Below, piece by piece: positions 3,912 to 7,815 of a DNA stretch of 15,677 bases (its first letter is position 1; each line of letters opens with the position of its first letter). The position numbers were made by a program, and so were the translations under genes. The DNA is taken from UHGV virus genome UHGV-1824706. One strand, given 5' to 3'. The notes under the pieces were generated by a model. It saw only the letters and a list, made by a program, of their open reading frames with translations, had not been told where the DNA came from and did not search any database. The stretch comes from a virus.

Positions 3912-5348
3912 TCAGAATCCTCCTTTCTTCTTGGATTGCGGTTCCTCGCGTTCACGGCGGCGCATTTCAGCAGACTGTTGGTCTGTGTCATAAATAGCGC
4001 CATTTGCCTGAATGCAATACACCGTGCCGGTATTGCCATGACGGTTGAGACGAAGGATTAGTTCGGTTTCACCAGGTGGAACACTGTCATCAAAAGCACC
4101 TTCCCGATGGATCCCCACCCAATAATCGCAATCCTGTTCAATCTGCCCTGTATCGCGCGAGTCACTTGGTAATGGGCGTTTATTGGTTCGGCTTTCCAAT
4201 GCGCGGTTAAGCTGTGTCAGAAGCACAACAACGCAATCAAGCTCTTTGGCAAGGTTCTTCAGTCCTTTGGTGATCATGCCGTATGCAAGGTCGTTGCGAT
4301 CGGCCTTTTCAGCGGTCATTAGCGTCAGGTAATCGACCAGAATCATGCCAACGCATCCTTTTTCTCGTTTGATTCGACGGCTTTCGCTGACGATTTGAGC
4401 CAGAGATAATCCCGGCGTGTCGTCGATGTAAAGCAGGTCGATTTCACTCAAGCGATTGGCTGTCTCGATCGCCCTGTTGAAGTCACCATCGTAATCACCC
4501 TGATAGCCGTCATCAGCGTCATTTGTCGCCGGAAGGTAAAAAATATTCGGGTTCACACCTGACTTCTGCCCTACCAGTTTTTCCAGTATCTGGTCACCTG
4601 GCATTTCAAGGCTGAACATCAGAGCGGGCTTTTTCTCATGCACTGCGCAGTTGATTGCCATCTGGCTGTATAGCGTCGTTTTCCCCATCTTAGGGCGAGC
4701 GCCAATGACAAACAGAGAGCCTTTCACCAGACCTTTCGGTGACAGCATCCTGTCCAGCGATGGGATCCCTGTGCTCATTCCTCGTTGTTCGCCTGACGGG
4801 TCAAATCGCTTCTCAAGGTCGCTAACCCAGTCTTCCATGACCTCACCAAATGAGCGAAGGCCGCGACGCGATCCGGTTTTTGCATGGTCTGTCAGTTGCG
4901 TGAAAATCGACTGAATAGCTTCGTACTTCTGCGTTGCAGTCATTCCGTTGCGGGAATAGAGCAATTCCGTCGCTTCAGTCATGCGGTTGATGGCGTAGCG
5001 TTCCATTGCGGTTTCGCGAACCTGCATTGCATAAGCAACGATGTTTGCTGCGCTTGGCGTGTTCTTTGCGATCTCAGCGATATAAGCAAAACCGCCAACA
5101 GACGCCGTTAACGATTTACGCTCCAGTTCATCGAAAAGCGTCAGGCCATCTACTGGCTTTTGCTCACGGTGCATTCTGGTTATTTCTTCGAAAAGGATTT
5201 TGTGTGGTCGGCTGTAAAATGAATCAGGCTTCAGCATCGCCAGAACTTTCTGGACGCGCTCACTGCTGTCATCATCCAGAAGCAATCCACCAATCACCGC
5301 CTGCTCTGCCTCGATGCTATTTGGCGGCGAATAAAAATTATCGGTCAT
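3912..5348 (-). CDS. DnaB-family replicative DNA helicase (P22 gene 12-like; functionally replaces lambda P)
   Basis: Walker A GARPKMGKTTL, DnaB N-terminal region AEQAVIGGLLLD, Walker B ILVDYLTLM; start chosen at MTDNF (ATG 5346-5348) with SD GAGGGTG. Confidence 0.85.
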   Translation of the reverse strand: MTDNFYSPPNSIEAEQAVIGGLLLDDDSSERVQKVLAMLKPDSFYSRPHKILFEEITRMHREQKPVDGLTLFDELERKSLTASVGGFAYIAEIAKNTPSAANIVAYAMQVRETAMERYAINRMTEATELLYSRNGMTATQKYEAIQSIFTQLTDHAKTGSRRGLRSFGEVMEDWVSDLEKRFDPSGEQRGMSTGIPSLDRMLSPKGLVKGSLFVIGARPKMGKTTLYSQMAINCAVHEKKPALMFSLEMPGDQILEKLVGQKSGVNPNIFYLPATNDADDGYQGDYDGDFNRAIETANRLSEIDLLYIDDTPGLSLAQIVSESRRIKREKGCVGMILVDYLTLMTAEKADRNDLAYGMITKGLKNLAKELDCVVVLLTQLNRALESRTNKRPLPSDSRDTGQIEQDCDYWVGIHREGAFDDSVPPGETELILRLNRHGNTGTVYCIQANGAIYDTDQQSAEMRRREREEPQSKKKGGF

Positions 5349-6228
5349 CGTGTTCACCCTCACGAACTTTCAGGTAGGTATTATCGTTAAGCAGGAAATC
5401 AAATCCCTTTTTGTGCCAGACGGTTCCGCGCTGATGGTTTGGGCGCTCTTCGAACATCCATCGGCAATTTTCGCCTACGTAGTTCAAATAATTTCTCCAG
5501 TCCTGCATCGTGAACCCATGCCCGTCAAGCTGGCGAGTTATCACTCCGGCTTTGCGCCAGAACGTTCGGATCTGGTTTTTACGCTTGTCATTCAGTGCGC
5601 GGATTTTTGGCGCTTCAGGAAGGATTTCGTGGTAAGCATCGACAACATCCTGACAGCTAACGGAAGGTTTTTTCTTGTCAGACTTTTTGTCTGCTGTGGC
5701 ACTCTCTAATACGTCAGTATTAGAGATATTATTTATATTATTGTTTATGGACAACCGTTGGACAACCGTTGGACAATCTCCGCTGAGAGCCGCGCCATTA
5801 CTGGTGTTTGCGTTGGACAACCGTTGGACAACCGTTGGACAATTTTTTGCCTGAAAATCGTCATATTTAACGATTGTAAACAGGCTAAATTTCTTCCCCA
5901 TCGAGCAAATATTAAGCATACCTTTCGACTCAAAAGTCCGTAATAAGCTCCGAACTTTGTTGTCGGGGATGAATGTTTCTCTGACCAGCGACGGGCGTCC
6001 AGTTATCATCTGACCGCGATCAACAGTTATCGGCCCGATATCCGTATTGACGACAGTAGATTCGTGATTTGCCTTGAGGATTAAGTGAAGCCAAAGATGT
6101 ACTGCCTGAGAGTCCTTATAGAGCCTGCTGTCCATAAACTGGCGGTGTATAGAGACATACCCCATACTGGATGCCTCCTGATGTTGTACAGGGTTATGCC
6201 TGTAATCAGCTAACTTAACGACGCCCAT
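5338..6228 (-). CDS. O-like replication initiator (replisome organiser) with internal origin; start either 6228 or internal ATG near 6165
   Basis: Gene immediately upstream of the helicase with an 11-nt overlap; contains iterons and a duplicated NCPTVVQRLS peptide; both candidate starts have AGGAG-type SDs. Confidence 0.7.
   Translation of the reverse strand: MGVVKLADYRHNPVQHQEASSMGYVSIHRQFMDSRLYKDSQAVHLWLHLILKANHESTVVNTDIGPITVDRGQMITGRPSLVRETFIPDNKVRSLLRTFESKGMLNICSMGKKFSLFTIVKYDDFQAKNCPTVVQRLSNANTSNGAALSGDCPTVVQRLSINNNINNISNTDVLESATADKKSDKKKPSVSCQDVVDAYHEILPEAPKIRALNDKRKNQIRTFWRKAGVITRQLDGHGFTMQDWRNYLNYVGENCRWMFEERPNHQRGTVWHKKGFDFLLNDNTYLKVREGEHDDR
5749..5842. repeat. Origin iterons: two identical 28-bp blocks GGACAACCGTTGGACAACCGTTGGACAA (11-bp unit x 2.5) at 5749-5776 and 5815-5842, flanked by AT-rich DNA
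   Basis: Direct repeats read from the sequence; 66-bp spacing keeps the reading frame; AT-rich stretch at 5706-5748 downstream in gene orientation, as in the lambda ori layout. Confidence 0.7.
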
Positions 6229-6376
6229 GCTTCACTCCTGCTTTGGCTAGTCTGTAAACACCAACAAGGCGCTCTGCGAACGCCCTGTTATTTGCTGCGG
6301 CTACCACTAATCCCTCAGGTGAATCAGGGTGTCGAATCTCTTCTTTTTCCTGGTATTTCTTACGACGTTTTGTCAT
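6215..6376 (-). CDS. Hypothetical small basic protein (53 aa) in the cII-O gap; not in the ORF track
   Basis: Hand translation MTKRRKKYQEKEEIRHPDSPEGLVVAAANNRAFAERLVGVYRLAKAGVKHGRR; SD AGGAG 5 nt upstream of the ATG; stop overlaps the O-like 6228 start. Confidence 0.3.
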   Translation of the reverse strand: MTKRRKKYQEKEEIRHPDSPEGLVVAAANNRAFAERLVGVYRLAKAGVKHGRR

Positions 6377-6410
6377 AATTACTCCTGTGGATTGATCCAG
6401 TCTTTCTACA

Positions 6411-6689
6411 TCAGGCCTCGAAGAATTCGCCGTTCTTCGGGGCTTTTTCTTTTGTCAGCATTCTGGCTACTTTCTTAGCCAGTTCCGCCAACTCCTCGTC
6501 TTCAACACCCCATTCAAGAACAGCCAGAAGCATTCCCATTTTTGGGATGAAGCTGTCTTTCCATCGCGAAATTTGCGATTCATTAATCCCTAACGCGTCG
6601 GCAACCTTTCGCTGACCACGTACAGCAATTCGATTCAGGATGTTGCTTGTAATTGCATTCGCTTTCTTGCGAGTACTTGTAAGTTGCAT
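6411..6689 (-). CDS. cII: CII-type transcriptional activator (92 aa)
   Basis: SQISRWKDSFIPKMGMLLAVLEWGV closely parallels the lambda CII HTH region; position between cro and O; lambda-like 5' UTR AAGGAAATACTTACATATG. Confidence 0.85.
   Translation of the reverse strand: MQLTSTRKKANAITSNILNRIAVRGQRKVADALGINESQISRWKDSFIPKMGMLLAVLEWGVEDEELAELAKKVARMLTKEKAPKNGEFFEA
6416..6453 (+). terminator. Plus-strand intrinsic terminator inside the cII 3' end (oop-like antisense RNA terminator)
   Basis: CCTCGAAGAA-uucgccg-UUCUUCGGGG stem-loop (one G.U pair) followed by CTTTTTCTTTT; orientation is antisense to cII/O. Confidence 0.5.
6667..6687 (+). promoter_or_regulatory. Candidate PRE-like CII-dependent promoter element
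   Basis: TTGC-gagtac-TTGT-aag-TTGC on the strand antisense to the cII start, resembling the lambda TTGC-N6-TTGC CII site at the equivalent position. Confidence 0.3.
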
Positions 6690-6797: not shown

Positions 6798-6992
6798 CTA
6801 TTTGTTTTTCTTGTTGCTTGGGAAAGGACGAACTTCCTCTCCAATCACACTGCCATCAGGCTTTACCGTAACCATAATGTTACGGCCTGCCAGAATGGCC
6901 TTGCTGATAGCGCACTGGATTACACCAAAGTCACTGGCTGCTTTAGCCTGTCCATGGATTTTGGCGTAATCGGCAAGTGTCATTCGAATCAT
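6798..6992 (-). CDS. cro: Cro-type repressor (about 65 aa)
   Basis: [39 protein letters not shown]...PFPSNKK parallels lambda Cro; start chosen at the ATG with SD GGAG (track ORF begins at an upstream GTG, 6998). Confidence 0.8.
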
Positions 6993-6999
6993 ATGCACT

Positions 7000-7098: not shown

Positions 7099-7815
7099 AT
7101 GGAAAATAAAAAATCACTGACGACAGAACAGCTGGAAGACGCTAAGCGGCTTAAGGCTTTGTATGAGTCAAAAAAGAAAGAATTGGGAATAACCCAATAC
7201 TCAATCGCTGATGAACTGGGTATCACCCAAGGAGCGGTAGGGCATTATCTTAATGGCAGAAATGCGCTAAACGTTGAGGTTGCATCTGGTTTTGCACGAT
7301 TGTTGCAAGTCTCAATTGCTGATTTTAGCCAGTCAATTGCTGCCAAGGTTGCAGAACAGGCAGAAAGCCTTAAGAGCGATGCCAACGTAAGGTATGCAGG
7401 GGAATACAGAGCAGGAAAGAGGTATCCGGTGTTAAGCAGTATCCAGGCTGGCTCGTGGTGTGAAGCATGCGAACCATACACCATTAAAGACATAGATGTT
7501 TGGCTTGAGTCTGACGCGCATATTCAAGGTAATGCGTTCTGGCTTAAAGTGGAAGGTGATTCAATGACGGCACCGGTTGGGTTAAGCATTCCAGAGGGAA
7601 CATTCGTTCTTTTCGATACCGGAAGGGAGGCGATCAACGGCAGCTTGGTCATAGCAAAACTTTCTGACTCTAACGAAGCAACATTCAAGAAGCTGATAAT
7701 CGACGGCGGAAATAAATACCTCAAGGGACTTAATCCTGCATGGCCTCTCGTGCCAATCAATGGAAACTGCAAGATTATAGGCGTTGCAATTGAGACAAAA
7801 CTCAGACTGGTTTGA
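7099..7815 (+). CDS. cI: CI-type prophage repressor (HTH N-domain plus LexA-like S24 autocleavage C-domain), 238 aa
   Basis: N-terminus LTTEQLEDAKRLKALYESKKKELGITQ is lambda-cI-like; C-domain has the catalytic Ser (EGDSMTAP) and Lys (TFKKL) motifs. Confidence 0.9.
   Translation: MENKKSLTTEQLEDAKRLKALYESKKKELGITQYSIADELGITQGAVGHYLNGRNALNVEVASGFARLLQVSIADFSQSIAAKVAEQAESLKSDANVRYAGEYRAGKRYPVLSSIQAGSWCEACEPYTIKDIDVWLESDAHIQGNAFWLKVEGDSMTAPVGLSIPEGTFVLFDTGREAINGSLVIAKLSDSNEATFKKLIIDGGNKYLKGLNPAWPLVPINGNCKIIGVAIETKLRLV

Follow-up and report, generated by a model that had tools for sequence, protein, structure and literature searches.

In phage lambda, the antisense RNA oop is reported to lower cII via pairing with its message and RNase III (Krinke and Wulff 1987, as cited elsewhere). 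The surrounding gene order was described by Hayes et al. 2012 (PMC3349717) as a cII-oop-"orf"-O-P layout with a conserved 33-bp pO/oop segment; the same work pointed out that lambda naturally lacks the small ORF (orf48 or gp53) found in this position, and that lambda CII does not need its last 17 residues for activity but does need them for OOP control.

Similar units were documented in two further phages. The P22 record BK000583 carries the annotations 'promoter, oop; similar to phage lambda' (TGGTCA-17-CATAAT) and 'terminator, oop', both at places homologous to those described below, and places orf48 between c1 and gene 18. A phagemid built on a P22-type cro-c1-orf-O-P arrangement has also been described (PMC8585504). 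The original report of P22 oop is Backhaus and Petri 1984, as cited by a 2026 P22 study, in which small-RNA sequencing of P22 infection gave a 63-nt oop RNA (GAUUGAUCCAGUCUUUCUACAUCAGGCCUC...). An OOP(BTP1) was annotated in the transcriptome of prophage BTP1 (Owen et al. 2020); the coordinates given in the supplement do not include those of OOP.

Here, we analysed a 15,677-nt stretch of the UHGV virus genome UHGV-1824706, hereafter the window, for which an earlier note, made from the sequence alone, had pointed at an oop-like antisense terminator in the 3' end of cII and at a small basic ORF in the interval between cII and O. We compared the locus with the systems mentioned above and with related loci, and weighed the possible explanations of its layout.

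Materials and methods

Related loci (n = 274) were gathered from viral contigs and phage records; a scan of genome contigs with a single cII sequence returned only 8 loci. From every locus, the 115 nt running antisense from the start codon of the gene immediately following the cII-type one were taken, which resulted in a set of 122 distinct sequences. Hairpins followed by a T-run were scored as stem length minus twice the number of mismatches, and a score of at least 10 was used as the threshold. The MAFFT alignment of the diverse hairpins lost the stem register, and base pairs were counted by a stem-anchored script instead.

Results

Genomic context and gene layout

The window comes from a mosaic lambdoid (pro)phage, whose early region it represents, and showed approximately 97% identity to mEpX2, HK140 and HK620 over 53-65% of its length. 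Positions 6200-6460 were 100% identical to HK446 and 98.9% identical to Sf6. The rightward operon is encoded on the minus strand in the order cro, cII, 53-aa ORF, O-like initiator and DnaB-like helicase (Table 1). The cII product matched the Pfam family Phage_CII over residues 1-91 of 91 profile positions (1.8e-42) and was also assigned to PHROG 191. Origin iterons were located inside the O-like gene, and the Sf6 record annotates a rep_origin.

Table 1. Features of the early region of the window.
Feature	Position	Strand	Remark
DnaB-like helicase	3912-5363	minus	rightward operon
O-like replication initiator (Sf6 gp43 type)	5338-6228	minus	PHROG 345 at 1.2e-84
First 10 codons of O-like gene (MGVVKLADYR)	6198-6228	minus	BLAST module break at 6198-6200
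53-aa basic ORF, HK97 gp53 / Sf6 gp42 / ES18 gp58 family	6215-6376	minus	PHROG 1331
pO-type promoter of oop RNA	6351-6379	plus	read from sequence
Conserved 33-bp boundary sequence	6369-6401		Sf6 'bsq5', Hayes et al. 'sequence 5'
Predicted oop antisense RNA, ~61-67 nt	6387-6453	plus	3' end in T-run
cII (P22 c1-type) transcriptional activator, 92 aa	6411-6689	minus	stop codon 6411-6413
tO-type intrinsic terminator	6413-6453	plus	inside cII 3' end
cro	6798-6998	minus	rightward operon
cI	7099-7815	plus	

The distance from the cII stop to the O start measured 182 bp, as opposed to 32 bp in lambda (cII end at 38653, O start at 38686), and thus matched the gap of about 180 bp given previously. Its description as unusually long, however, did not hold, since loci with a small ORF outnumbered those in which a lambda-type O follows directly, in a sample of related loci that was partly gathered with gp53 itself as the query.

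A pO-type promoter and the predicted oop RNA

The promoter read on the plus strand is composed of a weak -35-like element TGGTAT (6351-6356), a 17-nt spacer, TG at 6371-6372 and CATAAT at 6374-6379, the latter being the -10 candidate named in the earlier note. The preceding TG makes it an extended -10 (TGnCATAAT, 6371-6379); both the -10 and its extension are identical to those of lambda pO. As in lambda, this element overlaps the start codon of the following gene, its CAT being the complement of the gp53 start codon, and the unit has kept its orientation with respect to cII and O. The similarity continues into the transcript. The oop strands of lambda (TTTGTCATAATGACTCCTGTTGATAGATCCAGT) and of the window (TTTGTCATAATTACTCCTGTGGATTGATCCAGT) were compared from the extended pO -10 across a spacer of 7 nt to the initial nucleotides of oop; both have CTCCTGT as the leader and G(T/G)TGAT..GATCCAGT as the start, and TTTGTCATAAT.ACTCCTGT is common to the window, lambda and the annotated P22 oop promoter. 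The arrangement proposed as oop-like is therefore homologous to lambda pO/oop in the -10 and in the RNA 5' end, and the P22 record annotates oop at this very place.

No conservation with lambda was found in the -35 half of pO, which lies in O in lambda and in gp53 in the window. The TGGTAT element (2/6 matches) falls inside gp53, whereas P22 and BTP1 carry the orf48-type TGGTCA, and in all of these the -35 is covered by Tyr-Gln (or Asp-Gln) codons common to gp53 and orf48. Because of this poor -35, a generic promoter scan of the window did not call the pO site. Since the -35 is weak and unlike that of P22 and BTP1, the strength of the promoter here rests on the extended -10, and this is the main uncertainty on the level of expression.

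The 5' end of the RNA is predicted at G6387 by homology to lambda or at G6390 by the small-RNA reads of P22, which, with a 3' end at approximately 6450-6453, gives a length of 61-67 nt, in good agreement with the transcript of about 65 nt expected beforehand. The lambda oop RNA is 77 nt long, 55 nt of which lie in cII, as compared to approximately 42 nt in cII for the window. The complementarity of the predicted RNA extends over the final 13 codons and the stop of cII and over the 34-nt spacer between cII and gp53, and the boundary of the RNA is 1 nt away from the gp53 Shine-Dalgarno sequence. The window type has a weak 5' stem-loop, one pair of which is disrupted in BTP1.

The first 30 nt of the P22 oop RNA are identical to window positions 6390-6419, and the DNA of BTP1 is identical to positions 6390-6458, that is, along the whole RNA with the terminator included. 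As OOP(BTP1) has been detected, the predicted RNA was therefore detected in a phage that is identical in sequence over 6390-6458 and has a different -35. For the phage of the window itself, we infer from the sequence that transcription from pO through oop to tO probably occurs.

At the gathering threshold, the Rfam search returned zero matches for the window, and a permissive search of the window yielded only chance-level hits, ctRNA_p42d (E = 0.24) and sX13 (E = 0.39). Given that even the lambda and P22 loci had no match, Rfam possesses no usable oop model; the lack of a match for the window is thus uninformative, and automatic pipelines miss oop.

The antisense terminator is conserved as a structure

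The scan of the plus strand revealed a hairpin at 6413-6445 with 14 pairs (6 G-C) and a loop of 5 nt, followed by TTTCTTTTGT. In this structure, positions 6413-6426 pair with 6432-6445 around the loop TCGCC, and the T-run TTTTTCTTTT occupies positions 6444-6453; the core stem GGCCTCGAAGAA (6414-6425) pairs with TTCTTCGGGGCT (6433-6444) with one G.U. The strong terminator with a single G.U pair described before in the 3' end of cII was thus recovered, in the same place where lambda has its own intrinsic oop terminator. The 76-nt RNA corresponding to positions 6380-6455 folded at -27.9 kcal/mol (z = -4.5), and none of 200 shuffled sequences folded as well. The sense strand is without a T-run, and the terminator should therefore not stop transcription from pR.

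Among related loci, an antisense hairpin with a T-run was present in 101 of the 122 distinct regions, as compared to 3 of 610 shuffles and to none of the 122 sense strands. The regions below the threshold had long hairpins too, which were followed by an interrupted T-run. A total of 35 distinct hairpins was counted, among which several stem sequences were unrelated to each other; every hairpin ended at a distance of 68-91 nt from the start codon. In sequence, the body and the terminator of lambda oop are unlike those of the window, and so is the hairpin of P22, where 5 of the 14 pairs were changed on both sides with the pairing kept. The terminator is beyond chance and is conserved as a structure, with covariation across relatives; a comparison with relatives, of the kind that had been advised for testing the RNA structure, thus showed the hairpin to be kept, with compensatory changes between the window and P22. 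Since the hairpin occupies the final 13 cII codons, the types have different C-terminal tails of CII, whose amino acids change while the hairpin stays.

The 53-aa ORF is a member of the HK97 gp53 family

The ORF following cII matched PHROG 1331 over residues 1-53 of 53 profile positions (1.4e-37). It is preceded by the Shine-Dalgarno sequence AGGAG (complement of 6382-6386) located 5 nt before the ATG, and its product of approximately 6 kDa is basic (14 K/R vs 6 D/E, pI 10.7), which agrees with the lysine/arginine-rich ORF with an AGGAG recognised earlier. An overlap of the ORF with the O start had also been noted earlier and measures 14 nt (6215-6228), but that start is located downstream, and not upstream, in the direction of transcription. 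The ORF was missing solely from the gene track available to the earlier note, since it is annotated in mEpX2, Sf6, ES18 and HK phages (e.g. HK633) and, as 'hypothetical protein', in RefSeq E. coli records.

Sf6 gene 42, ES18 gp58 and mEpX2_047 are each stated in their records to be similar to HK97 gp53. Together with HK97 gp53 they belong to the same family (PHROG 1331) over the full length and share its position and its overlap of 14 nt with an O-like gene whose product begins MGVVKLADYR; nothing material differs from the window. The 261-bp gp53/oop stretch (6200-6460) had matches in 958 of 5426 complete E. coli genomes, and 52 distinct DNA sequences of gp53, encoding 28 distinct proteins, were found in Escherichia, Salmonella, Enterobacter, Citrobacter and relatives.

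The diversity at the three codon positions of gp53 was 0.136, 0.069 and 0.372, and dN/dS amounted to 0.11-0.13 in frame, in contrast to 1.5-2.8 in the other two sense frames. All length differences among relatives were in frame. The conservation of the reading frame, which had been named as a point to check, is thus evident from in-frame indels and from dN/dS. The 14-nt overlap with O was found in 107 of the 109 scored loci with the gp53 ORF, and one copy was frameshifted and truncated. Judged by these substitution patterns, the ORF is clearly coding and is a real protein gene under purifying selection.

When 1.84 billion representatives were searched exhaustively with the profile, only 24 proteins of the gp53 family were recovered, all of 29-84 aa, and no larger homologue that could lend a function. 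There were zero matches in Pfam (E < 0.1), NCBIfam, PADLOC and PDB sequence profiles. The AlphaFold model (pLDDT 67) featured an unstructured basic N-terminus and two helices (residues 20-29 and 31-46), and had 0 matches in PDB by Foldseek. With moderate confidence, the model suggests that gp53 combines a flexible Lys/Arg-rich N-terminus with two helices.

P22 and BTP1 have a layout like that of the window, in which a small ORF separates c1/cII from the O-like gene, but orf48 (DUF2740), together with the TGGTCA -35 half, stands where the window has gp53. P22 orf48 and HK620 HkaW are positional analogues, i.e. basic 48-aa ORFs initiated from the same joint, which start with MTK/MPK..., followed by (Y/D)Q over the -35 of pO, and have an 8-nt overlap with the next replication gene. 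Homology between gp53 and orf48/DUF2740 was considered and rejected: the window ORF had no match to PF10872 (E < 0.1), and hhalign gave a probability of 0.5% between the two family alignments. Literature found on gp53 together with HK97 consisted of structural-biology papers only, and no mention of DUF2740 was found in the papers searched. It should be added that the 'orf48' of Silas et al. is a library number (gnarl1) and was not taken as P22 orf48.

A recombination joint and a small cassette

The 33-bp sequence, to which the 'bsq5 boundary sequence' annotation of Sf6 maps, contains the -10 of pO, the 5' end of oop and the Shine-Dalgarno sequence and ATG of the following gene, which is O itself in lambda. 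BLAST matches broke at window positions 6198-6200, 6367 and 6401, and the 33-bp sequence is a recombination joint between cII/oop modules and replication modules. On one side of it, four oop/terminator types occur (those of the window, P22 and lambda, and a fourth one); on the right-hand side, the options are gp53, orf48/HkaW or a lambda-type O directly. Most combinations of the four oop types with the three right-hand options were found among the loci, and the P22 oop type with orf48/HkaW was not found in the sampled loci.

The initiators encoded after gp53 begin with MGVVK(x)LADYR and continue into at least three diverging bodies, one of which is clearly lambda-O-like; the codons of MGVVKLADYR hence travel with gp53 and not with the body of O. 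Synonymous variation was seen in the codons of this decapeptide, which indicates that it is constrained as protein. Given this linkage between two joints, gp53 and the first 10 codons of O (approximately 6198-6401) behave as a small cassette.

Discussion

The most probable reading of positions 6215-6453 (with a probability of roughly 0.9) is that of two known lambdoid features lying back to back at a conserved recombination joint. In this scenario, a constitutive extended -10 pO promoter, overlapping the start codon of the rightward gene that follows, would fire on the plus strand against pR and produce an RNA of 61-67 nt that ends at the terminator encoded in the last 13 codons of cII. This RNA would pair with the cII message over approximately 42 nt of coding sequence and the 34-nt spacer, RNase III would cut the duplex, and the resulting decrease of CII would shift the decision toward lysis. 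Such an effect on cII would be expected here by analogy with lambda. The convergent transcription from pO may in addition modulate the rightward transcription that enters the replication genes, and the duplex, ending 1 nt from the gp53 Shine-Dalgarno sequence, could hinder the binding of ribosomes to gp53. The latter would be translated from the message of the pR operon, with its Shine-Dalgarno sequence and ATG in the joint and its stop overlapping the O start.

It is rather unlikely that the pO-oop-tO unit mainly controls replication, its convergent transcription beside O tuning both the read-through from pR and the transcriptional activation of the origin, with the overlap with cII being secondary. 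The idea draws on divergent prophages bearing gp53, in which the upstream gene encodes a YdaT_toxin-domain protein and not Phage_CII; at these loci, the antisense hairpin with its T-run lies in a gap of 88-96 nt and barely reaches the upstream gene. However, the terminator is placed inside the last cII codons at every Phage_CII-type locus examined, the window included, CII alters the amino acids of its C-terminal tail to keep the hairpin, and antisense control of cII by oop is documented in lambda. It should also be added that the two roles of oop, in replication and in the control of cII, are not mutually exclusive. We find it very improbable that the hairpin serves solely as a terminator or structural element, such as one that stops stray plus-strand transcription leaving the origin region, with no discrete RNA starting from the -10 at 6374-6379. 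The poor -35, the missing call in the promoter scan and the difference of the -35 half from that of phages in which oop RNA was detected would fit such an explanation, but the -10 and extended -10 are identical to those of lambda pO, the TGn-CATAAT and RNA body are conserved via a 33-bp joint shared by otherwise unrelated modules, and RNAs with a matching 5' region were seen in P22 and BTP1.

As for the ORF, there is hardly any likelihood that the 53-codon frame is nonfunctional as a protein, being an incidental or leader frame or one kept for DNA/RNA signals, namely the -35 of pO, the recombination joints and translational coupling to O. Such signals are indeed embedded in it, as the first codons of gp53 overlap pO, the Tyr-Gln codons cover the -35-like element and the last 14 nt overlap O; moreover, lambda manages without the ORF. 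Against this, dN/dS remained at 0.11 once the promoter and O overlaps had been excluded, variability at the third codon position exceeded that at the first two by a factor of approximately 3-5, pS was 0.54 vs a pN of 0.10 over the 52 distinct DNA sequences, and indels were all in frame. Besides, O has an AGGAG Shine-Dalgarno sequence of its own (complement of 6235-6239), and coupling between gp53 and O is therefore not required. The analysis of codon selection has thus largely refuted this explanation already.

With the frame taken as a real gene, the early operon encodes in gp53 a small protein, basic and helical, which probably has an accessory part in replication or in early regulation. Our best guess on its role is that gp53 assists the early or replication programme as an accessory factor, one that is dispensable in principle because lambda does without it. 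That gp53 is a specific regulator rather than a passive passenger, acting as a partner of the O decapeptide or in an oop/cII feedback, seems unlikely; as one example, gp53 and MGVVKLADYR could control the stability or the loading of the initiator. That the N-terminus of O might serve as a ClpX degron is an assumption, for which no stated motif was found in the literature consulted.

Curated phage records and the literature already contain both the oop unit and the small ORF that lies between cII and O, the locus is an ordinary one, and the reading given in the earlier note was correct. As a discovery, the locus matters little, the window being 98.9-100% identical to sequenced phages over positions 6200-6460. 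Nevertheless, the gp53 ORF merits addition to the gene track, and oop merits annotation as an ncRNA feature. The families of gp53 and orf48 would represent a cheap target for a knockout study, with about one in six complete E. coli genomes having a match to the gp53/oop stretch.

Features flanking the antisense unit

Coordinates of the features within the window are collected in the table below. The repeat within cII constitutes the -35 region of pRE and is the site of CII binding; its placement agrees with the annotation of the related phage mEpX2. The replication origin contains 11-bp iterons, TTGGACAACCG, arranged in two clusters of three and adjoined by an AT-rich stretch. Promoters returned by a generic promoter scan at 5748-5777 and 5814-5843 were rejected, as the matches correspond to these iterons.

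Coordinates of sequence features in the window
Feature	Position	Strand	Location or overlap
CII-binding site, TTGC-N6-TTGC, TTGCTTGTAATTGC	6643-6656	+	cII 5' end
Replication origin	5700-5850		O-like gene
AT-rich stretch	5700-5745		origin
Iteron cluster	5748-5780		O-like gene
Iteron cluster	5814-5846		O-like gene
O-like decapeptide codons	6198-6228		residues 1-10
(Y/D)Q codons	6350-6356		-35-like element of pO
MTK/MPK codons	6368-6376		-10 of pO

The O-like protein begins with the decapeptide MGVVK(x)LADYR. Between the window and related loci (L009-L088 and L216-L295) the initiator bodies behind it fall into at least three unrelated kinds, and the decapeptide is constant. Its codons vary synonymously, and therefore the constraint acts at the protein level. 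In lambda O, the N-terminus serves as recognition signal for ClpX; VVKL in the decapeptide would presumably match this motif.

Overlap of promoter and coding sequence

The 53-aa gp53 and the 48-aa orf48/HkaW, which are unrelated, begin with the same codons (MTK or MPK) and also have a (Y/D)Q pair in common. Both sets of codons coincide exactly with elements of pO, the promoter of the antisense RNA, namely its -10 and -35-like element. The same bases are under both promoter and coding constraint.

In public records, the 48-aa ORF bears the RefSeq label 'tail protein' in several phages, and in prophage BTP1 it is intact, yet lacks annotation. Annotation problems were noted in NC_002730, NC_019723, NC_019706, NC_014900 and NC_019708, and also at 264-410 of locus L297.

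Oop-like units beside other regulators

Five loci were inspected at a point some 90 nt upstream of their gp53 homologue (at ~1501). The preceding gene encodes a YdaT_toxin domain (PF06254) instead of Phage_CII in three of them (L239, L250 and L254; 1e-25 to 1e-26 for the two that were scanned). The preceding protein of about 190-200 aa in L275 and L284 had no match in Pfam. The antisense hairpin and T-run were kept in all five, almost wholly intergenic within a gap of 88-96 nt, and therefore the oop-like unit also occurs beside regulators outside the cII family.
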